From NCBI GenBank assembly GCA_017983435.1, contig JAGOBM010000005.1, positions 28,469 through 92,468 on the forward strand: a stretch of DNA of 64,000 bases, written 5' to 3'. Position 1 is the stretch's first letter. Every line of letters starts with the position of its first letter. Positions 6,434 through 60,176 of this stretch are shown piece by piece. The position numbers were made by a program, and so were the translations under genes. The notes under the pieces are model-generated. The model was given only the letters and a program-made list of their open reading frames with translations. It did no database searches and was not told where the DNA came from. The DNA comes from Candidatus Moraniibacteriota bacterium (GTDB lineage Bacteria; Patescibacteriota; Minisyncoccia; Moranbacterales; UBA1568).

Positions 6434-6819
6434 CTTTTCTAAGACAGGTTGGATTGCCGCGCTTTGGAGCCTTTTTTGGCTTCTTTGTGAGGAAAGTCCG
6501 GACACTCCCCATCGCTTGCGATGGAAGGGTAATGGGTAACTCCCATACGCCGCGAGGCGCGAGGTGCGAACAGAAACGGCCGATTCCGAAAGGGATCGGA
6601 TATCCGGGTGCAAATCCGGATAAGCCTCTCTGGTAACAGGGAGGGTGAAACGGCTAAATCCTTACCTGAGTGCAAGGTCGAGCTCCCGTTCATATTGCAG
6701 CTGCGATTGAGTGGGAGAGAACCGCACGGATCTGGCTGGCAACAGTCAGGCAAGAGAAATGGCAATCGTCCCGCTTCGGCGGGATACAGAATCCGGCTTA
6801 TAGGCCTGTCTTAGAAAAG
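6434..6819 (+). ncRNA. rnpB: RNase P RNA (bacterial type A)
   Basis: Contains universally conserved GAGGAAAGTCCGGAC (P4), GGGTGAAACGG, and ACAGAATCCGGCTTATAGG (P4 3' strand, cf. E. coli ACAGAACCCGGCUUAUCGG); 15-bp P1 helix cttttctaagacagg / cctgtcttagaaaag closes the molecule; about 386 nt. Confidence 0.9.
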
Positions 6820-6855
6820 CATCATCGAAACGAATCCTTGATCATCTCTGTCCGT

Positions 6856-8280
6856 ATGAAACGATCAGAAATATTCTTCAGCGCTCTGCAGCTCCCGGTG
6901 GATCTCCTCATGATCTCGCTCGCGGCGCTGAGCGCGTACTATGTCCGCAATATTCCGCAGATCCTCGCGCTTCGGCCGAAGCTCTACGATATCACGCTCT
7001 CCGGTTTCATGGAGGTGATTTTTTTCGTGGCGCCGATATTCGTCCTCATCTTCGCGCTCGAAGGACTCTACCAGATGCGGACCACGCGTCGCTTCTGGCA
7101 GGAAGCCTACCGGGTCTTCAAAGCGACCTCGCTCGTGCTTGTCATCGTCATCGTGGTGATCTTCCTCAAGCGCGAATGGTTCTCGTCCCGCTTCATCATC
7201 CTCGCGGGCTGGGGATTCACCGTCCTCTATATCACGCTCGGCCGCTATCTCATCGCCCGTGTCCAGCGCTATCACCTCCTCAAGAAGGGGACGGGTGTCC
7301 ACCGCGTGCTCCTCATCGGAACCAACGGCAAGATGCAGGCGATGAATCAGTACCTGACAGCGCATCGTGAGCTCGGCTACAAGATCGTCGCGCAGGTCTC
7401 CGGTGTCTCGCTCCATGAGATCAAAGCGATCCGGGCCGAACGGGGTATCGACGAGGTCATCGTCTGCGATCCGACCCTGACCGATGATGAACATGAGAAA
7501 CTCCTCGATTACTGTCAGATCAACAATATCGGCTATCGTTTCATCCCGACGACGCTCCAGGCGTCTCGTATCTCCATGCAGGTCGGCATCCTGAACGGCG
7601 AACCGATCATCGAGTACCAGCACACGCCGCTCGACGGCTGGGGCAAGGTCATGAAACGGGCCTTCGATCTCTTTGCCGGATCTATCCTGACCCTCATTGC
7701 GCTGCCGATCATGGGTATCATCGCGCTCCTCATCCGCATCGAAGACGGTACCGGACCGATCATCTACAAGAATGAGCGTGTCGGTCAGGACGGCAAGAAA
7801 TTCTATGTGTACAAGTTCCGGTATATGCTCTGGAAGCATTGTATCGCCAAGGAGAACCCGCATCTCGAGGCGGCGCTGGCTTTTGAGAAGCAGTTGATCG
7901 CCGAGCGCAATACGCGCGAAGGCGGCGTGCTGTACAAGATTAAGGATGACCCACGCAAGATGAAGGTCGGAGCCTTTATCGAACGTTATTCGCTCGATGA
8001 GCTGCCGCAGTTCTTCAATGTCCTCCGTGGAGAGATGAGTCTCGTGGGCCCGCGCCCGCATCAGCAGCGCGAGGTCGACAAATACAGCGAATACCATCGC
8101 CGGCTCCTCACCATCAAACCGGGCATCACCGGTATGGCACAGGTCTCCGGACGCTCTGATCTGCCGTTCGAAGACGAGTACCGCCTCGATGTCTACTATA
8201 TCGAGAACTGGTCGCTCTGGCTCGATATCATCCTCTGCCTCAAGACCTTCACCGCGCTCATCCGTCGTCGGAAAAATTAA
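6856..8280 (+). CDS. Undecaprenyl-phosphate sugar phosphotransferase (WbaP/WcaJ-like initiating glycosyltransferase)
   Basis: N-terminal multi-TM region, central linker, C-terminal bacterial sugar-transferase domain (KFRYM..., DELPQFFNVLRGEMSLVGPRP). Start moved from ORF-track 6670 to ATG 6856 because 6670-6819 is rnpB. Confidence 0.85.
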   Translation: MKRSEIFFSALQLPVDLLMISLAALSAYYVRNIPQILALRPKLYDITLSGFMEVIFFVAPIFVLIFALEGLYQMRTTRRFWQEAYRVFKATSLVLVIVIVVIFLKREWFSSRFIILAGWGFTVLYITLGRYLIARVQRYHLLKKGTGVHRVLLIGTNGKMQAMNQYLTAHRELGYKIVAQVSGVSLHEIKAIRAERGIDEVIVCDPTLTDDEHEKLLDYCQINNIGYRFIPTTLQASRISMQVGILNGEPIIEYQHTPLDGWGKVMKRAFDLFAGSILTLIALPIMGIIALLIRIEDGTGPIIYKNERVGQDGKKFYVYKFRYMLWKHCIAKENPHLEAALAFEKQLIAERNTREGGVLYKIKDDPRKMKVGAFIERYSLDELPQFFNVLRGEMSLVGPRPHQQREVDKYSEYHRRLLTIKPGITGMAQVSGRSDLPFEDEYRLDVYYIENWSLWLDIILCLKTFTALIRRRKN

Positions 8281-8298
8281 TCGATTAATCGAAAAAAT

Positions 8299-8640
8299 AT
8301 GGTTCTCCTCAAATGGGTTGTCTCGGCGCTCGCATTTCTCGCTCTGCCGTATATCGTGCCGGGTATCAGCGTCAAAGGGTTCAGCACGGCGTTGCTCCTC
8401 GCTTTTCTCTGGGGTCTGATCGGTATTACGGTCAAGCCGATACTGGTCATCCTCACCTTGCCGATCAATCTTTTGACCTTCGGTATCTTCACCTTTGTCA
8501 TCAATGGATTCCTCCTCTGGATGCTCGGCGGATTCATCAAGGGATTCGATGTGAAGACGTTTACCGCCGCGCTGCTCGGAGCGGTCGTCCTCTCGATCAT
8601 CCACACGCTCTCACACTGGGCCCTCAACCGGGCGGATTAA
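8299..8640 (+). CDS. DUF360 / phage-holin-4-like small membrane protein
   Basis: 113 aa, four predicted TM helices, sequence pattern typical of the YvlD/DUF360 (holin family IV) membrane protein family. Confidence 0.6.
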   Translation: MVLLKWVVSALAFLALPYIVPGISVKGFSTALLLAFLWGLIGITVKPILVILTLPINLLTFGIFTFVINGFLLWMLGGFIKGFDVKTFTAALLGAVVLSIIHTLSHWALNRAD

Positions 8641-8684
8641 TTTTAGCGGTCCGACCGCTAAAAAACTTCGAAGAATATACGGGA

Positions 8685-8716
8685 AATCCCAGTCTGACAG
8701 ACTGGGATTTTTATTA
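8685..8716 (+). terminator. Intrinsic terminator (aaatcccagtctgacagactgggattttta)
   Basis: 12-bp perfect stem followed by T-run, downstream of the DUF360 gene. Confidence 0.65.
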
Positions 8717-8841
8717 TCAAAAAAGCATAAGAAAATCCTGGGTCACGGGAAAGATTTTTTCGATGCACTACGCTTCCGAGCGTACAGCAAGAAAAAAATT
8801 TCTCGTGGCCTGGGATTTTTCCGAATATTTCTCCTGAGGAT

Positions 8842-8996
8842 ACGAAAGCAGATTTTTTCTGTGCCAATTGAAATCTCTTTCCAAGGGGGAAACAATCTTT
8901 TCCTCGCTATCGCCTCGGAAGTCTCGGGCAGCAGAAAAAATTGTTTCCCCCTTGGAAAGAGACCCTATTCGATGGCGCAGAAAAAAATCTACTTTC
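8842..8996 (+). repeat. Hairpin element copy A (conserved core cctcgctatcgcctcggaagtctcgggcagcag; internal 23-bp perfect inverted repeat 8874-8896 / 8940-8962; outer stem cgaaagcagatttttt / aaaaaatctactttcg)
   Basis: Direct sequence comparison with copy B at 48075-48161: the core and the outer stem base are shared, the stem extensions are unrelated but perfectly paired in both. Confidence 0.8.
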
Positions 8997-9001
8997 GCAT
9001 C

Positions 9002-9030
9002 TTGCTCCCTCACTCAAAACAGTGTAAACT
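9002..9030 (+). promoter_or_regulatory. Putative promoter (TTGCTC - 17 nt - TGTAAACT) for the 9058 gene
   Basis: -35-like and extended -10-like hexamers with 17-nt spacing, starting 6 nt after hairpin element A. Confidence 0.4.
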
Positions 9031-9057
9031 AAAAGCAAACAATAACTCAAACCTCCT

Positions 9058-9816
9058 ATGCCCCTCCTCCCCAAAAAAGGCTCAGTCCTTGTCTTCTCTC
9101 TCATCATCTTGAGCATCATCCTCTCCGCCGCTATCACGGTAGCGAGTGTCTCTATCACCAATCATCGTTCTGCCTCTTCGACTGGCAAATCCGTCCAATC
9201 CTTCCAAGTCGCTGACTCCGGTATCGAGCTCGCTCTCCAGAAGATCTACAAAGGCAATCATGCCACGCTCAGTGCCATGGCTACCGCCATGGGAGGCGGA
9301 GCCTCCTGTGCCGGAGGCACCATCTCCAAGAACAACGTCGTCGGAGGCAATATCAAAGTCTCGTTCTATGACAATGATGGTAATCTCGTCACCTGTGCCG
9401 CTACGGATTGGAGAGACAAAGTCGTACGAATCAAATCAGAAGGCTCCGCTTTCGGGACGACTCGGGTGGTGGAAACGGCGGTGGCGGCGAGCGGAAATTT
9501 TACAGGGAGTTATGACTGTACGGGAACGGGGCATGCTCTTGGTGGAGGCAACTATACGAATGGGACGAAACCAAGGTTTGTCATCGTGACCGCGCACAAT
9601 ACTGCCAATATTTCCCAGGGATGGATATATGCGTATGTGAATAATGTGGCGGTGGGGAGAGCGACTACGAGCGATGCTAATTCGGGACTTGGCTGGCTGG
9701 CTGCTGCGAACTCAGTTTCTTTTATGGTTCCGCCAGGGGCTCAATATAAGGTAGATAGGGTACCGAATAATGGGAATACGAATATCGTTCAGGATTCGTG
9801 GTGTGAGATTGAGTAG
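9058..9816 (+). CDS. Secreted / cell-surface protein with pilin-like N-terminus (KKG followed by a hydrophobic helix)
   Basis: 252 aa; N-terminal MPLLPKKGSVLVFSLIILSIILSAAI resembles a class III (prepilin-type) signal but lacks Glu at +5; G/T/N-rich C-terminal domain. Confidence 0.45.
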   Translation: MPLLPKKGSVLVFSLIILSIILSAAITVASVSITNHRSASSTGKSVQSFQVADSGIELALQKIYKGNHATLSAMATAMGGGASCAGGTISKNNVVGGNIKVSFYDNDGNLVTCAATDWRDKVVRIKSEGSAFGTTRVVETAVAASGNFTGSYDCTGTGHALGGGNYTNGTKPRFVIVTAHNTANISQGWIYAYVNNVAVGRATTSDANSGLGWLAAANSVSFMVPPGAQYKVDRVPNNGNTNIVQDSWCEIE

Positions 9817-9849
9817 CTGTACTGGATGTTTTCCGTACAAGAATATACA

Positions 9850-9877
9850 AAAACAGCGGGTGACCGCTGTTTTTTAT
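9850..9877. terminator. Bidirectional intrinsic terminator (aaaaacagcgggtgaccgctgtttttt)
   Basis: Perfect 7-bp GC stem flanked by A-run and T-run, between convergent genes. Confidence 0.75.
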
Positions 9878-9891
9878 CTTATGAGAAGTTG

Positions 9892-21648: not shown

Positions 21649-22758
21649 ATGAAGATAGCCCTGGTGCATGATTATCTGGTGCAGTACGGAGGAGCGGAGC
21701 GGGTGCTCGAGGCTTTTACCGAGCTTTATCCCTACGCGCCGATCTATACGCTCATCTACGATCCTGAGGCGATGCATGGTGTCTTCGTCGGCAAACGCAT
21801 CTATACGTCGTTCCTTCAGAAATCCCGGTTTGTGCGCAAGCATCACCGGCTTTTTCCGGCGCTCATGCCGCTCGCGATCGAGGAGTTCGATTTCTCGAAA
21901 TACGATGTCGTACTCTCTGATTCGTCGAGCTATGCCAAGGGCATCATCACGCGGCCTGAGACGCTCCATATCTCCTATATGCACACGCCGATGCGCTATG
22001 CTTGGGATGACTGCCAGAAGTACACGGAGGACTTCGGCTTCCCGCTCCTGGTGAAGAAGCTGGTGCCGTTCTTCATGAATCCGATCCGTCTCTGGGATCG
22101 GGTGAGTGCTGACCGAGTCGACCGCATCGTGGCCAATTCGAATTTCGTAGCGGCGCGCATCCGGAAGTACTATCGGAAGGAATCCGTCGTCATCCATCCG
22201 CCGGTCGATGTCGATCGCTTCGCGGTCGATCCGGTCGGGAAAGATTACTATCTCATGGTCGGCCGGCTCATCGCCTACAAGCGCCACGATATCGCCATCG
22301 AGGCATTCAACCAGCTCAATCTGCCGCTCAAGATCATCGGCCGCGGACCAGAGCTCGAGCGTCTCAGGCGGCTGGCTGGACCGACGATTGAATTCCTCGG
22401 CCGGGTCGACGAGGTGGAGCTGCCGAAATACTATGCCGAATGCCGCGGATTTGTGTTTCCTCAGGAGGAGGATTTTGGCATCGTGGCGATCGAGGCCTTG
22501 GCTTCGGGCCGCCCGCTGATCGCGTATCGGGGCGGCGATATCCCGGAACACATGGAGGAAGGGAAAATGGGAGTATTCTTCGATGAGCAGACGAGCGAAT
22601 CCGTTATCCAAGCGGTGAAGCGGTTCGAGAAGATGCATTTTGATCCGGCATACATCCGGTCGCGGGTGCTCCGCTTTGACAAAGCGCTGTTTAAGGCTAA
22701 GATGAAGGACTACATCGAAAGCGAGGTAGCGAAACATCTGGAACGCAGGCAATACTAA
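21649..22758 (+). CDS. Glycosyltransferase family 1 (GT4)
   Basis: MKIALVHDYLVQYGGAERV N-terminus, C-terminal E(x7)E-like region. Confidence 0.85.
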   Translation: MKIALVHDYLVQYGGAERVLEAFTELYPYAPIYTLIYDPEAMHGVFVGKRIYTSFLQKSRFVRKHHRLFPALMPLAIEEFDFSKYDVVLSDSSSYAKGIITRPETLHISYMHTPMRYAWDDCQKYTEDFGFPLLVKKLVPFFMNPIRLWDRVSADRVDRIVANSNFVAARIRKYYRKESVVIHPPVDVDRFAVDPVGKDYYLMVGRLIAYKRHDIAIEAFNQLNLPLKIIGRGPELERLRRLAGPTIEFLGRVDEVELPKYYAECRGFVFPQEEDFGIVAIEALASGRPLIAYRGGDIPEHMEEGKMGVFFDEQTSESVIQAVKRFEKMHFDPAYIRSRVLRFDKALFKAKMKDYIESEVAKHLERRQY

Positions 22759-22873
22759 AAACACACAAACCAAACAAAACGCAGTATTCATAGCACACTC
22801 CATATTTTCGGGTTTTGTGTTGTATGATGTGTTTGGTTTTTGTATGTTTAGTCCTGTCATTGAATGCAAGTCT

Positions 22874-29739: not shown

Positions 29740-29960
29740 GATAGAGCTAAGAGCCTCTCCCGATAGATCATCGCAGCTATAAAAAAGAACAACTGCTTGT
29801 CGGCTGAAATTCCAGAATTTCGGCTGCAAATCTTGAAAGACTCGGCGGAATAGCTACAGTATTCCTTCTCATCTTTCAGAGATTTTCGCTCGAAATTCTG
29901 AAATTTGCATCTCGACATGCTCTATTGGGAGCGGCTCTAAGTCATTAAAACTATACTGCT

Positions 29961-39041: not shown

Positions 39042-39115
39042 GGGCAACTAGCTCAGTTGGTTAGAGCACAGCATTCACATTGCTGGGGTCACTGGTTCGA
39101 ATCCAGTGTTGCCCA
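39042..39115 (+). tRNA. tRNA-Val (anticodon CAC)
   Basis: Manual cloverleaf: acceptor gggcaac/gttgccc, D-arm gctc-agttggttag-agc, anticodon stem cagca/tgctg with loop ttCACat, T-arm actgg-ttcgaat-ccagt; CCA not encoded. Confidence 0.85.
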
Positions 39116-42008: not shown

Positions 42009-42081
42009 TGGGTGCGGAGGGGATCGAACCCACGACCGTTGGCTTAAAAGGCCACTGCTCTACCGACTGAGCTACGCACCC
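42009..42081 (-). tRNA. tRNA-Lys (anticodon UUU)
   Basis: Reverse complement folds as acceptor gggtgcg/cgcaccc, D-arm gctc-agtcggtag-agc, anticodon stem with loop cTTTTaa, T-arm gtggg-ttcgatc-ccctc (one U-U mismatch); CCA not encoded. Confidence 0.8.
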
Positions 42082-48045: not shown

Positions 48046-48074
48046 GGTAAGGATTTCTGTGCAGGAGTTGATTC

Positions 48075-48161
48075 CAGCCGAGCTGCGAAAGTAGATTTTT
48101 TCCTTGCTATCGCCTCGGAAGTCTCGGGCATCAGAAAAAACCTACTTTCGCAGCTCGGCTG
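48075..48161 (+). repeat. Hairpin element copy B (perfect 20-bp stem cagccgagctgcgaaagtag / ctactttcgcagctcggctg around core ccttgctatcgcctcggaagtctcgggcatcag)
   Basis: The core differs from copy A at 2 of about 32 positions; the stem base cgaaagtagatttttt is shared, the outer 11 bp are unique to B. Confidence 0.8.
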
Positions 48162-48249
48162 AAACCCTCGGGCGTCGAAAGAAATCTCTTTTGGTCCAGA
48201 CTCAGTCGGAACATGTATTTTTTGGCTTTTTAGAGGGTATTTTGGACTC

Positions 48250-52612: not shown

Positions 52613-52830
52613 GAAGAACTTCTAGTCAGCCACTTCTAAAAAATATCGTCCCCCTCCCGTCAAGCTATCCCTTCGGGAGTCTCTCGTCCGTCCAGCGACG
52701 GACTTCATTGCGTGAAATCCAAGTCATCCGTCATTCTGACGGAACCATGCTGACTTGGCTTTCAAGCCTCCCGAAAAGATACTTGAGGAAGAGGGACTGG
52801 GTTACTGGTATTTTTTTGTTTGGTGTTTTT

Positions 52831-53017
52831 AGACCCTTTCCCGCAAAGAATTTTGCACCATGTCGCTTTCAAGTCGGAAACCGTTTCCGACACGAGCGCC
52901 GCTAGAAAATTTCCGTGACGCGAGCGTAGTCGTAGCTGGACAGGAAATTTCATCGGCGTGACGTTGGAAAACGGTCGACTGAAAGTGCGGGGCAAAATTC
53001 TTTGCGGGAAAGGGTCT
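52831..53017. repeat. 187-bp MITE-like palindromic element with perfect 26-bp terminal inverted repeats (agaccctttcccgcaaagaattttgc)
   Basis: TIR 52831-52856 is the exact reverse complement of 52992-53017; the interior is itself a nested set of inverted and direct repeats (for example gtcggaaaccgtttccgac); no ORF. Confidence 0.7.
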
Positions 53018-53084
53018 GAGAACTGATAAAAATACCAAGAACTTCATCAGGATTTTGACTGTGTCCTCAGACAATAAAAAAACT

Positions 53085-53122
53085 ACCGGCGTGAGAACTG
53101 GTAGTTTTTTTATCTGCAAAAG
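53085..53122. terminator. Bidirectional terminator (aaaaaaactaccggcgtgagaactggtagttttttt)
   Basis: 6-bp stem with symmetric A-run and T-run; serves the convergent ACS gene. Confidence 0.7.
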
Positions 53123-53128
53123 AAACAG

Positions 53129-55249
53129 CTAGTCGGCTTCGATGCGGATGCGGGCATCGAGGGTGCGGAAGTCTTCGGCGTGTTCAAAAGCGAGCAGCGG
53201 GTTGATGTCGAGCTCAGCGATTTCGGGGAAGTCAGTCGCGATGCGGGCCAGGCGGCCGATGGCATCGATGATCGCCTCGCGGTCCACACCGGCTTGGCCG
53301 CGCGCTCCTTCGAGGAGCGGATAGCTTTTGAGCTCACGGAGCATGGCCTCGGCATCCTCGCGGGTGAGGGCCTCGGCGAAGCGGAAGCTGGCATCCTTGA
53401 AGACTTCGACGAAGATCCCGCCGAGTCCGATCATGATCAAGGTACCGAGCCCCGGCTCTTTCTTGAGACCGAGTATGAGCTCGAGGCCGCTTTTTTCGGC
53501 CATTTCGACGACGAGTGCTCCTTCGAGCCGGGCCTCCGGGACACGGGCTCTGACAGTCGCCATGAGCTCGTCATAGGCCTGATCGGCGTGCTCCGGATCG
53601 ATGCCGAGCAGGACACCACCAGCATCTGATTTATGAGTGATGTCTGGTGAGACGATTTTGAGGACAACTGGCTTACCGATCTTCTGTGCCGCAGCGAGCG
53701 CCGACTCCCGTGAAGTGACGACCTGATGCGAGAGGAAGCGGAATCCGTAGGCGGAGAGTATGCGCATGCAGTCGGCTTCGGGGATCTGCAGCTGATTGTT
53801 TTTCCGGGCAGCTTTGATGGTCTTGCGAGCGACCGCGGTATCGATATCCGGAAAATCAAAAGGAGTGGTGCCGAGCTCGGTGCGCCAGCGCGAGACCTGA
53901 GCGAGATGGCCGAGCGTCCGGGCGGCGGCTTCCGGCGAGCGGAGAGCGGCTACCTGATGATTTTCGAGGAAGGCTTTGGCAGAGCCGAAAGACTGATCAC
54001 CTGAGAGCGAGACGATGATCGGCTTGGTAGGGAATCGGTCGCGGGCCGAAGCGATCGCCTCAGCGGTCTTGTCGGCTTCAGTCATGGCCTGGGGAGTGAT
54101 GATGACGAGCAGCATATCGACGTTCGGATCGGCGAGTGCCGTATCGAGCGAGCGCTCGTAGCGATCGGCATGCGCATCGCCGAGGACATCGATAGGATTG
54201 TGACTATTGGCAGCGGCCGGCAAGAAGGATTGGAACATCGCGATGGTTTCCGGTGCCAGGATCGCGAGCTCGAGTCCTTGGCTGACACAGGCATCGGTAG
54301 CCATGACACCGAGTCCGCCGGCGTTGGTCAGGATCGCGACGCGGTTGCTTTCGGGGAGAGGGTTCTTGGAGAAGACTTCGAGCGCGGCGGTGAGCTCTTC
54401 CAGGCCATCGACGCGGATGATACCCGCTTGTCGGAAGAGGGCTTCATAGGCAGCGTCGCTGCCGGCCAGTGCGCCGGTGTGCGAGGAGGAGGCCGCCGTA
54501 CCGGCCGCGGTCTTGCCGGACTTGAGCGCGACGATCGGCTTGGGTTCAGCACGGCGGAGTATCGCCCGGCCGGTATCGATGAGACCTTTCGCGTCGGAGA
54601 GGTCTTCGGAATAGAAACCGATAGTCTTGGTCGTCGCATCAGCCGCGAAGAAGCGGAGCAGGTCGTTTTCTTGGAGCATGGCCTTGTTGCCGGTGCTGAC
54701 GCAGATCCGATAGCCGAGCCGTCGGCCGCTCATATCGAGGAGCGCGGTGAGGAGCGCTCCGCTCTGAGAGAAGAAAGCGATCGGGCCGGCCTCGGGGAGC
54801 GTCTTGGCAAATGAGGCATTGAGATGATCGTGCGGCGCGAGAAAGCCGAGACAATTGGGACCGAGCAGGGTGATGGAATATTCGGAGGCGATACGGAGAA
54901 CTTCCTCTTCGAGCGCTTTGCCTGGGGCACCGGTCTCCTTGAAGCCGGCGGAAATAATGGCGGCTGCAGGGATCTGTTTCTTGCCGCATTCGCGGAGCAC
55001 AGCCGGGACGATAGCCGCGGGTACGGCGATGACGGCGAGGTCGACGGATCCTTCGATGGCGAGGACGGACGGGAAGCACGGCTTGCCGAAGAGTTCGGTT
55101 GCCTTGGGATTGATTGGATAGCTGGCGCCGGAGAATTGCTCGATGATATTTTTGGCGAGAGTCCAGCCGACGCTGCCTTCCTGGGTCGAGGCGCCGATGA
55201 TAGCGATGGACTGGGGTCGGAACAGGGTGGAAAGTTGCATAAAACGCAT
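53129..55249 (-). CDS. Acetyl-CoA synthetase (ADP-forming), fused alpha-beta (NDP-forming acyl-CoA synthetase, ACD)
   Basis: 706 aa; N-terminal CoA-binding Rossmann (IAIIGAS...), succinyl-CoA-synthetase-like flavodoxin domain, C-terminal ATP-grasp beta part (KSDAGGV...). Confidence 0.9.
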   Translation of the reverse strand: MRFMQLSTLFRPQSIAIIGASTQEGSVGWTLAKNIIEQFSGASYPINPKATELFGKPCFPSVLAIEGSVDLAVIAVPAAIVPAVLRECGKKQIPAAAIISAGFKETGAPGKALEEEVLRIASEYSITLLGPNCLGFLAPHDHLNASFAKTLPEAGPIAFFSQSGALLTALLDMSGRRLGYRICVSTGNKAMLQENDLLRFFAADATTKTIGFYSEDLSDAKGLIDTGRAILRRAEPKPIVALKSGKTAAGTAASSSHTGALAGSDAAYEALFRQAGIIRVDGLEELTAALEVFSKNPLPESNRVAILTNAGGLGVMATDACVSQGLELAILAPETIAMFQSFLPAAANSHNPIDVLGDAHADRYERSLDTALADPNVDMLLVIITPQAMTEADKTAEAIASARDRFPTKPIIVSLSGDQSFGSAKAFLENHQVAALRSPEAAARTLGHLAQVSRWRTELGTTPFDFPDIDTAVARKTIKAARKNNQLQIPEADCMRILSAYGFRFLSHQVVTSRESALAAAQKIGKPVVLKIVSPDITHKSDAGGVLLGIDPEHADQAYDELMATVRARVPEARLEGALVVEMAEKSGLELILGLKKEPGLGTLIMIGLGGIFVEVFKDASFRFAEALTREDAEAMLRELKSYPLLEGARGQAGVDREAIIDAIGRLARIATDFPEIAELDINPLLAFEHAEDFRTLDARIRIEAD

Positions 55250-60080: not shown

Positions 60081-60176
60081 CTTGGAAAGGACGCTTTCCA
60101 AGCAGAGGAAAAGGAACAGGTGCATGTGCCGTCTTCCTGTTCCTTTCCCTCTGCTCTTGCAGAAAGAGTTTTTTTG
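60081..60176 (+). terminator. Compound terminator: three consecutive hairpins (9-bp, 19-bp, 5-bp stems) followed by a T7 run
   Basis: cttggaaagg-acg-ctttccaag; gcagaggaaaaggaacagg / cctgttcctttccctctgc; ctctt-gcaga-aagag + ttttttt. Confidence 0.7.

Follow-up and report, generated by a model that had tools for sequence, protein, structure and literature searches.

The intergenic spacer between a DUF360 membrane-protein gene and a pilin-like gene of a Candidatus Moraniibacteriota bacterium contains a long hairpin whose wobble pairs are all G/T on the plus strand. Does this polarity mean that the spacer is transcribed rightwards as a structured RNA, as the first-pass annotation of the window (the whole stretch of 64,000 nucleotides analysed) had argued, or does it belong to the hairpin itself? 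The 417-nt spacer consists of four hairpins in succession, and is arranged with its flanking genes as follows.

8299 to 8640, plus strand: upstream gene for a membrane protein of the DUF360 / Phage_holin_4_2 family
8641 to 8663, plus strand: short hairpin directly after the DUF360 stop codon, UUUUAGCGGUCC/GACCGCUAAAA
8682 to 8716, plus strand: canonical intrinsic terminator of the DUF360/holin_4_2 gene, with a 14-bp stem, a loop of 3 nt and a tail of five U
8731 to 8820, plus strand: T1 copy of a palindromic repeat, a 90-nt hairpin recognised by its folds, its covariation and an identical copy at a RuvC locus
8839 to 9001, minus strand: element A, a nested hairpin (72 bits with covariance model R1, minus strand)
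9002 to 9030, plus strand: putative promoter of sigma-70 type for the pilin-like gene (TTGCTC, 17 nt, TAAACT), proposed from its sequence only
9058 to 9816, plus strand: pilin-like gene with a prepilin-type N-terminus

The terminator of the DUF360 gene folds with an energy of −19.3 kcal/mol and its stem covaries in a sister lineage. Its 3′ arm, CTGGGATTTTT, is repeated at 8810–8820 as the end of the T1 3′ arm. The putative promoter directly adjoins element A at its outer 3′ arm, and the site is kept in the related loci L003, L031 and L042 (loci and their contigs are given L numbers throughout); a scan for consensus promoters did not call it. The L031 homologue of the pilin-like protein gave a weak match to PilX_N. 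Other giant hairpins occur elsewhere in the window, for example at 52815–53035 (−113 kcal/mol).

The letters recorded in the first-pass annotation for 8731–8754 and 8799–8820 match the sequence exactly, and the helix between 8731–8752 and 8799–8820 has 22 pairs in a row, 17 Watson–Crick and five G–U (8731/8820, 8739/8812, 8740/8811, 8743/8808 and 8748/8803). At every one of the five wobbles the plus strand carries G or T, as had been reported. The minimum free energy of 8725–8826(+) calculated with RNAfold was −48.8 kcal/mol, and the fold obtained was exactly this helix with a structured interior. Shuffled sequences gave a mean of −21.7 (z = −8.2), and none of 200 folded as well. The interior had been described as a loop with a 5-bp hairpin of its own; it does contain its own hairpin, but is more ordered than this and its tip stem is 6 bp long. 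The parts of the predicted plus-strand fold are listed here.

8731 to 8752 with 8799 to 8820, plus strand: outer stem of T1
8755 to 8761 with 8791 to 8797, plus strand: U7/A7 stem of 7 bp
8764 to 8766 with 8787 to 8789, plus strand: 3-bp stem
8769 to 8774 with 8779 to 8784, plus strand: tip hairpin of 6 bp
8775 to 8778, plus strand: UCCG tetraloop closing the tip hairpin

For the minus strand of T1 the predicted fold is also this hairpin, interrupted by mismatches (−35.1 kcal/mol, z −4.35). When DNA parameters were used, the energies were −28.4 for the plus strand, with G–T wobbles, and −22.4 for the minus strand. A minus-strand RNA and a plus-strand DNA would thus both fold, contrary to the description of the helix as RNA-only and confined to the plus strand. 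The T1 helix is genuine and non-random and one strand is favoured, but it is neither RNA-only nor plus-strand-only.

At the base of T1, a run of four to five A residues is paired with U5. T1 ends in U5, but this U5 pairs with the A-tract and the stem-loop is 90 nt long; a consensus terminator scan of the T1 region called only the sub-hairpin 8736–8750. In L031 and L041 T1 is, judged by eye, the sole terminator-like structure after a TraG-like gene. The ends of the T1 subfamily read GAAAATCC...GGATTTTT, and other subfamilies differ. Searches of 8000–9800 against Rfam 15 at E values up to 10 returned generic hairpin or miRNA-like chance matches, far under the gathering scores. At the gathering threshold the whole window yielded RNase P RNA and two tRNAs and nothing else, and a scan of six related loci gave nothing relevant.

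Conservation of the fold was examined in a gap-free alignment of eight T1 copies from five loci, using the helix described above and the interior stems. Paired cells made up 91.4% of the total; shuffled alignments gave 82.4 ± 1.1%, with none of 500 reaching the observed value, and controls in which the structure was slid had at most 57% of cells paired. Eighteen of the 38 pairs were altered on both sides. An alignment of 18 cores gave 85.5% of cells paired, against 78% in shuffles. The 5′ arm exists as three alleles, UCACGGG in the window, CCACGGG in L041 and CUGCGAG in L031, facing an identical 3′ arm; they differ by transitions only, each of which exchanges a Watson–Crick pair and a G–U pair. 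Preservation of the pairing in homologues had been set beforehand as the point on which the proposed structure would be judged, and the pairing is kept, through compensatory as well as wobble-mediated changes. The secondary structure is conserved with covariation, as in a generic structured RNA, and the T1 hairpin is a genuine, selected single-strand structure.

T1 is not alone in the window. A core motif, TTTTTTC-N2-3-TGC-N6-CTTCCGAG-N5-AGCRAG-RAAAAAA, has three exact matches there against 0.41 expected, and the T1 core recurs inverted in element A (8888–8948) and at 48088–48148. The features concerned are as follows.

8746 to 8806, plus strand: apical 61-nt module of T1, the region matched by R1 (75.9 bits, E 2e-15)
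8839 to 8858 and 8982 to 9001: outer arms of element A, with the family consensus CGAAAG-N-AGATTTTTTC
8874 to 8902 and 8934 to 8962: inner arms of element A
8888 to 8948, opposite to T1: T2-type core within element A
48072 to 48164, minus strand: solitary T2-type copy with its core at 48088 to 48148 (R1 76.2 bits)

T1 and element A form an inverted doublet, and from its sequence we read element A as a second hairpin nested between outer arms that bear the family consensus. The solitary copy folds at −62.7 kcal/mol on the minus strand and −50.1 on the plus strand; it has a plus-strand terminator on one side and a plus-strand promoter-like site on the other, and is antisense to its neighbours.

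One scan of the genome collection and one of the metagenome collection, searches with R1 (built on the 61-nt core) and exact-protein look-ups yielded 31 distinct copies of the family in Moranbacteria/Patescibacteria contigs. The titles of contigs with true copies name Candidatus Moraniibacteriota, Patescibacteria or "uncultured Bdellovibrionales", the last of which we presume to be a misassignment. False positives, either coding sequence or a Clostridia leader-like RNA, accounted for 13 of the 29 stretches that the two big collection scans had brought up, and a scan of viral contigs gave no family copies. The folds of all copies show the same architecture. In the T1 core type the stem of the tip hairpin covaries (ACGC/GCGU, AUGC/GCAU, UUGC/GCAA); the T2 type, found in element A and the 48-kb copy, retains CUUCCGAG and has a different tip. 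The arms beside the core follow a consensus of about GGCTGCGA(G)AAAG-N-AGATTTTTTC in most copies, and because the arms share this consensus the repeat unit is the whole hairpin of ~90 nt. For the same reason we dropped the idea, hinted at by L033, that insertion had generated the variable arms as inverted copies of the host DNA at the site. Copy density in the window is three per 64 kb. Adjacent copies are mutually inverted in eight of eight pairs (the window, L031/L041, L042, L052, L029/L038, L025, L057 and L058). The T1 and T2 cores are complementary at CUUCCGAG/CUCGGAAG (8/8), but kissing or long-range contacts between them were set aside, as the cores are locked in far more stable local hairpins.

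The two arms of each copy were compared in the orientation that gives the core as GAUGC..CUUCCGAG..AGCAAG (the core-sense strand). Of the transition mismatches between the arms, 60 formed G–U on the core-sense strand and six on the other strand, or 41 against four when each locus and state was represented once. Folding energy was lower for the core-sense strand in 25 of 31 copies; some copies, namely those of L035, L024 and L040 and the second copy of L041, fold slightly better on the antisense strand. Replication-strand mutational bias was rejected as the source of this polarity, because T1(+) and A(−) lie ~100 nt apart with opposite polarity while the GC skew of the window is uniformly positive.

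The polarity does not follow the genes around the copies. Three copies are antisense to both neighbours: those of L017, between POR(−) and XseA(−), of L035, between TIM(−) and a GalT-like gene(−), and of L013, between EF-P(−) and SSB(−). The T2 copies at 8888–8948 and 48088–48148 lie on the minus strand amid plus-strand genes. The doublet of L029 and L038 is situated between convergent DsbA-like and integrase genes, and it and the L025 copy run the same way as the genes they follow. In the window, L031, L041, L029 and L038, T1 points in the direction of the gene upstream of it and has a U-run at its end. Neither orientation nor position relative to a promoter or host gene is constant: copies are sense, antisense, intragenic and inverted at an orthologous locus.

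The last of these situations was seen in a sister lineage, in contigs from three samples (L042, L043 and L045) whose DUF360 is at least 90% identical to that of the window. The gene order is the same as in the window (DUF360, terminator, hairpin, element A, pilin-like gene), but the orientations differ: the R1 match to T1 falls on the minus strand, and that to the T2 core of element A on the plus. T1 of these loci is identical to window T1 at 84 of 90 positions when reverse-complemented and at 70 of 93 when compared directly. The L042 T1 folds at −52.9 kcal/mol on its core-sense (minus) strand and −44.0 on the plus strand. In L042 the interior of element A alone is flipped; the outer arms (CTGTGCC...GGCGCAG) keep their orientation, which places the breakpoints in the arms. 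A single big inversion over T1 and A was excluded, since T1 and A follow one another in L042 as they do in the window, and there must have been two separate flips. The T1–A–pilin module also occurs in a TraG/VirD4-like context, in the window state in L031 and L041 and inverted in L052–L056. The pilin-like gene accompanies the T1–A doublet both beside DUF360 and beside the TraG-like gene; L007 lacks it. Independent assemblies of each lineage agree in orientation, and this speaks against an assembly artefact.

The element was also found within a coding sequence. In L016, L022, L024, L040 and L015 it lies in the gene for a protein of ~475 residues that matches Wzy_C (O-antigen-ligase family), where the copy occupies the loop between TM2 and TM3. 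The forward in-frame element is translated as ...RLTGTQKQLFLMPFASEQTAKKKFVFALQ..., and the Wzy_C peptides read ...KQLFLMPFASEQTAKKKFVF... (forward) or ...FSLLFARKQRASEKAVFA... (inverted). The orthologue in L033, 68% identical to that of L022, carries the element in the same loop read on the other strand (...FSLLFARKQRASEKAVFA...). Among 60 aligned Wzy homologues, one clade has the forward peptide and a subclade the inverted peptide. More distant homologues are 35–45 residues shorter at the insert loop, and further homologues have unrelated inserts there, which marks the loop as an insertion hot spot. Translation of ten copies showed that at least four of six reading frames are stop-free through the 97-nt element, and T1 and T1b copies have five open reading frames through it. 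The suspicion that the T1b copies belonged to an rRNA or another RNA gene was rejected, as they sit in Wzy-like coding sequence. The repeat is therefore in frame in a coding gene and read through, as RPE repeats are. A single in-frame host gene was found: a concatenated six-frame peptide search for other hosts returned, besides known Wzy proteins, only P0121, which was rejected as a spurious ORF spanning a T1–A–T1 region.

Both orientations of a segment bounded by inverted repeats, as expected of an inverton, were thus found at the DUF360, TraG-like and Wzy loci, and at all three the orientation differs between lineages only. Since copies may be sense or antisense, lie in a gene both ways round, and be inverted at an orthologous locus, the wobble polarity is a property of the element and not of host transcription. 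The proposal of a rightward structured RNA stands in so far as the stem is beyond chance, strand-asymmetric and conserved. Its use of wobble polarity as proof of rightward transcription does not hold: the wobbles are bound to the orientation of the core (60 against six), some copies are antisense (L017, L035, L013), the Wzy copies occur in both orientations, and the whole hairpin is inverted in L042, L043 and L045. Furthermore, G–T wobbles would stabilise plus-strand single-stranded DNA as well, and the terminator at 8682–8716 lies between the DUF360 gene and the hairpin. T1 reports the polarity of a dispersed, invertible repeat, and not the direction in which the spacer is transcribed.

Among contigs whose DUF360 is either identical or shares at least 90% identity, the spacer after this gene takes at least four forms: that of the window, the inverted one, one in L007 and L044 that contains other hairpins, and one in L005. 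L007 was considered as a clean empty site and rejected, because other hairpins (an X/T3 variant) occupy this position in L007, L005 and L044 and the alignment is ambiguous; comparison of these three gave no clean empty site for intergenic copies. Of the features of a MITE, the arms provide inverted repeats, and an empty site is seen at the protein level only, in the Wzy homologues without an insert. T1, the spacer and the beginning of A recur with 100% identity beside a RuvC locus on contig L058, which belongs to the genome assembly that also contains L003. The identity begins exactly at the base of the hairpin (window 8729) and the left flank is unrelated. The L058 contig ends at the same base as L002, and independent contigs stop at one base inside the repeat. 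No direct repeat that might be a target-site duplication flanks T1; its three left flanks differ and the right flank is common. Over residues 1–136 the pilin-like protein of the window shares 91% identity with that of L031; beyond this point the two are unrelated. No transposase, RAYT or recombinase could be linked to the family; the 64-kb window contains none that was detectable, and a tblastn search there with the L029 integrase gave no hit. A tyrosine recombinase gene of the XerC/D-like kind adjoins the doublet in L029 and L038.

We consider it probable that 8731–8820 is one copy, of type T1, of a ~90-nt palindromic repeat of Moranbacteria that resembles REPIN, RPE and SPRITE elements, folds as a single strand, and at this locus is like a two-way terminator. 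The unit consists of an asymmetric conserved apical module and basal arms that are more diverged but still complementary. The module comprises a U-run, a TGC stem, a tip (hairpin or loop) that carries CUUCCGAG with the UCCG tetraloop, AGCRAG and an A-run. The family is dispersed in intergenic DNA, nested in other copies as in element A, often arranged as inverted T1/T2 doublets and present in multiple copies within one genome; it can sit in frame in a gene, and it changes orientation between related lineages. Because mismatches between the arms appear as G–U(T) wobbles on the core-sense strand, it would be the single-stranded hairpin of that strand through which the element is used or propagated. 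The single-stranded form may be ssDNA recognised during copying or mobilisation, in the manner of REP/REPIN, or it may be RNA. A DNA-level repeat is favoured by independence of host orientation, doublets, nesting, in-frame copies and flipping, and an RNA role as a terminator or insulator working in either orientation is favoured by the UNCG-type tip loop and the A-tract/stem/U-tract base. The UCCG tip loop, being of this type, would fit RNA better than DNA. The hairpin at the T1 locus, with its A-tract, stem and U-tract, may accordingly be an orientation-tolerant terminator or insulator, and T1 with element A may mark the left boundary of a variable pilin-like gene cassette.

That T1 is instead a functional structured RNA, either a small RNA, a 3′ UTR or a 5′ leader, carried on a rightward transcript and selected here for its plus-strand fold, seems to us unlikely. 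The strong plus-strand fold, the five of five wobbles that are G/U on that strand, the covarying homologues, and the orthologous 5′-arm alleles that switch only between Watson–Crick and G–U pairs are all what such an RNA would show, as are the UNCG-type tetraloop at the tip and the loci at which T1, co-oriented with the upstream gene, ends in a U-run. However, the hairpin is inverted between the same genes in L042, L043 and L045, where the favoured strand is the minus strand, and other copies are antisense to both neighbours or run either way within coding sequence. The flipping unit, at 90 nt, is too small to have its own promoter, and none is conserved beside it. In the window a canonical terminator precedes the hairpin, and Rfam gave no match.

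We are similarly doubtful of a programmed inverton, in which a site-specific recombinase, using the arms as its inverted repeats, would flip T1, the Wzy copy and the interior of element A, so that the neighbouring pilin-like gene would undergo phase variation and the surface-polysaccharide ligase would be recoded. Intragenic recoding invertons as small as 57 bp have been documented (bioRxiv 10.1101/2023.03.11.532203). Several observations agree with this explanation: related lineages carry both orientations at three loci with breakpoints within the arms, the genes concerned (pilin-like and Wzy) are cell-surface genes, the in-frame copy is stop-free both ways, a tyrosine recombinase gene lies beside the doublet in L029 and L038, and contigs of independent assemblies break inside the element. 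Yet each lineage or study has one fixed orientation in all its assemblies, with no mixed population among them, and the adjoining recombinase resembles housekeeping XerC/D and has no homologue in the window. The flipped part of element A excludes the putative pilin promoter, the inverted spacers are very short (31–44 nt), and passive inversion between inverted repeats would also be possible. The broader proposal, that the family as a whole represents recombinase-driven or self-flipping hairpin modules in an ultra-small CPR bacterium, comprising a Wzy recoding inverton and a paired switch immediately upstream of the variable pilin-like gene, also appears improbable to us.

Template switching can invert the interiors of palindromes, and the complementarity of the arms could come in part from template switching at the DNA level and not from selection. 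A DNA-only palindrome, with arms kept complementary by template switching or gene conversion and a hairpin that is a by-product of a recombination-prone spacer, would suit the patchwork of hairpins downstream of DUF360 among strains with DUF360 identical or >90% identical and the many other giant hairpins in the window, but is very unlikely, because template switching predicts perfect arms and no strand bias whereas the observed bias of 60 to six needs a strand-specific single-stranded state, and because genomes whose Wzy proteins share only ~50–70% identity have kept the asymmetric apical module, which indicates constraint on sequence beyond symmetry.

A palindromic repeat of the kind we favour has consequences for how such loci are read. 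Strand-specific G–U wobble with covariation is usually taken as proof of a transcript from the locus, and it can ride on a repeat that flips; the wobble polarity of the Moranbacteria repeat is thus a caution for RNA discovery from sequence only. The family marks recombination-prone edges of variable surface-protein genes (pilin-like and Wzy) in host-attached organisms, and offers a tractable test for DNA inversion in CPR surface variation. Covariance model R1 and the core motif permit a census of complete genomes. Were the inverton explanation true, it would mean phase variation of an episymbiont cell surface from a dispersed repeat whose polarity is read in the single-stranded state.

We met with no account of small palindromic repeats from Patescibacteria/CPR genomes in the literature searched, and a prokaryote-wide MITE census of 2024 makes no mention of Patescibacteria/CPR. 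Among known systems, invertons share with the present family a short segment, bounded by inverted repeats, that is found in both orientations beside or inside cell-surface genes, and the copy within Wzy recodes ~25–30 residues and introduces no stop (compare bioRxiv 10.1101/2023.03.11.532203). In the Moranbacteria family, however, orientation changes between lineages only, no invertase is linked, and many dispersed copies are not switch-like. SPRITE (Streptococcus pneumoniae rho-independent-terminator-like element) and MITEs of the ERIC/Correia type fold as RNA hairpins; the doublet between convergent genes in L029 and L038 and the A-tract, stem and U-tract of T1 recall these elements. Unlike these elements, the Moranbacteria copies do not all have a U-tract and many are antisense or in coding sequence; neither a signature of TIRs with target-site duplication nor a partner transposase was identified for the family.

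RPE are palindromic repeats of ~100 nt that are intergenic or lie in frame in translated genes, according to the summary of Ogata et al. (2000) in PMC3184786. The copy translated in the TM2–TM3 loop of the Wzy-like protein is comparable. The differences are that the present family belongs to another phylum, has one in-frame host gene in both orientations and shows a marked strand-polar wobble; the likeness drawn here is one of behaviour. REP/REPIN elements are dispersed intergenic imperfect palindromes with an intrinsic orientation, for which roles in termination and mRNA stabilisation have been proposed (PMC3733652, PMC3184786). The Moranbacteria family differs from them in its unit of ~90 nt (against 20–40 nt) that is without a GTAG/CGTC head, in conserving the apical loop module and not the stem, and in its low density, which at three per 64 kb is below that of typical REP families. 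It resembles them in consisting of dispersed, oriented palindromes with inverted doublets (eight of eight adjacent pairs) that are thought to work as single-stranded hairpins, the form in which REP hairpins are bound by RAYT Y1 transposases, the enzymes that mobilise REP/REPIN elements. The family, its phylum, the conserved-apex architecture, the strand-polar wobble and the in-place inversions appear to be undescribed; the kind of element is one already known from REP/REPIN, RPE, SPRITE and ERIC/Correia-type repeats (PMC3184786, PMC3733652, PMC10969869).

The region 3′ of the DUF360 gene is hypervariable. When window positions 8641-9891 were compared with contigs L005-L010, L007 and L042-L051, from strains whose DUF360 proteins are either the same or no less than 90% identical, at least four forms of the spacer following this gene were found. 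The L007 contig lacks the pilin-like gene present in the window, and a glycosyltransferase gene comes directly instead. The stem of the DUF360 terminator covaries between lineages, pairing GGAAATCCCAGTCT with AGACTGGGATTTTT in the window (8682-8712) and GTAATCCCGATCT with AGATCGGGATTTTT in L042 (approximately 2882-2911). The 3′ arm of the window terminator, CTGGGATTTTT, recurs at the end of the palindromic repeat copy T1 (8810-8820).

Another PilX_N-like gene adjoins a truncated T1 in L019. The pilin-like proteins encoded at window 9058-9816 (252 amino acids) and at L031 241-879 on the minus strand (212 amino acids) are 91% identical over their first 136 residues and have unrelated C-terminal parts. 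The pattern resembles the cassette-like variation that a surface protein might show.

Contigs of independent assemblies break at identical bases, either within T1 or at the start of the nested hairpin element A. Three of them (L046, L047 and L050) end 113 nt past the DUF360 stop codon, whereas the shared end point of L002 and L058 is ...GATACGAAAGCAGATTT. Such identical breaks fit a multi-copy repeat, or heterogeneity of orientation, that confuses assemblers.

A third, diverged core variant, T3 (TTTTTTCTGAAGCCCGAGGTGCTTTAAACCGATAGTGAGGAAAAAA, with arms CTCACCCACTCAGCCAG), and pieces of those arms, called the 'X' hairpin, were found at the following sites.

L044, 2992-3053, minus strand: T3 core variant
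L007, approximately 620-720: fragments of the T3 arms
L041, approximately 375-440: fragments of the T3 arms

In the Wzy-like proteins, the TM2-TM3 loop that hosts the repeat also carries other short inserts unrelated to it (P0022, P0023, P0026, P0051, P0037 and P0058), examples being RFMIDEWGFRWLSVLKSKIIH and ...GLPRRGLLAMT.... These inserts may be translations of other repeats, and insertions seem to favour this loop as a hot spot.

The genome to which the window belongs has several intergenic hairpins of very great length. Long hairpins and inverted repeats noted in the window, together with its RNA genes, are as follows.

6441-6816, plus strand: RNase P RNA, bacterial class A (134.8 bits)
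39042-39115, plus strand: tRNA
42009-42081, minus strand: tRNA
52815-53035: giant hairpin of 221 nt, with 35-nt outer arms and a branched interior
29800-29912, 22748-22858, 1185-1288, 60095-60160 and 53055-53132: further long inverted repeats or hairpins of other sequence families

The giant hairpin has a folding energy of -113.4 kcal/mol on the plus strand, against -96.8 kcal/mol on the minus strand, and no similarity to the T1 or T2 cores was found in it. By appearance, the hairpin at 53055-53132 looks like a bidirectional terminator composed of A-tract, stem and U-tract. The RNase P RNA overlaps the 5′ portion of a long ORF listed at 6670..8280, and the called Bac_transf gene starts approximately 40 nt downstream of this RNA.

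Matches to the repeat search pattern in Clostridia/Oscillospiraceae MAGs (L012, L014, L023, L026 and L027) were rejected as false positives. They have in common a conserved leader-like sequence, GGCTGTGACGAAGACGG...CTTCCGAGCCGGAAGCCCGAA..., which is probably a riboswitch or leader of a known kind, with no relation to the palindromic repeat family.
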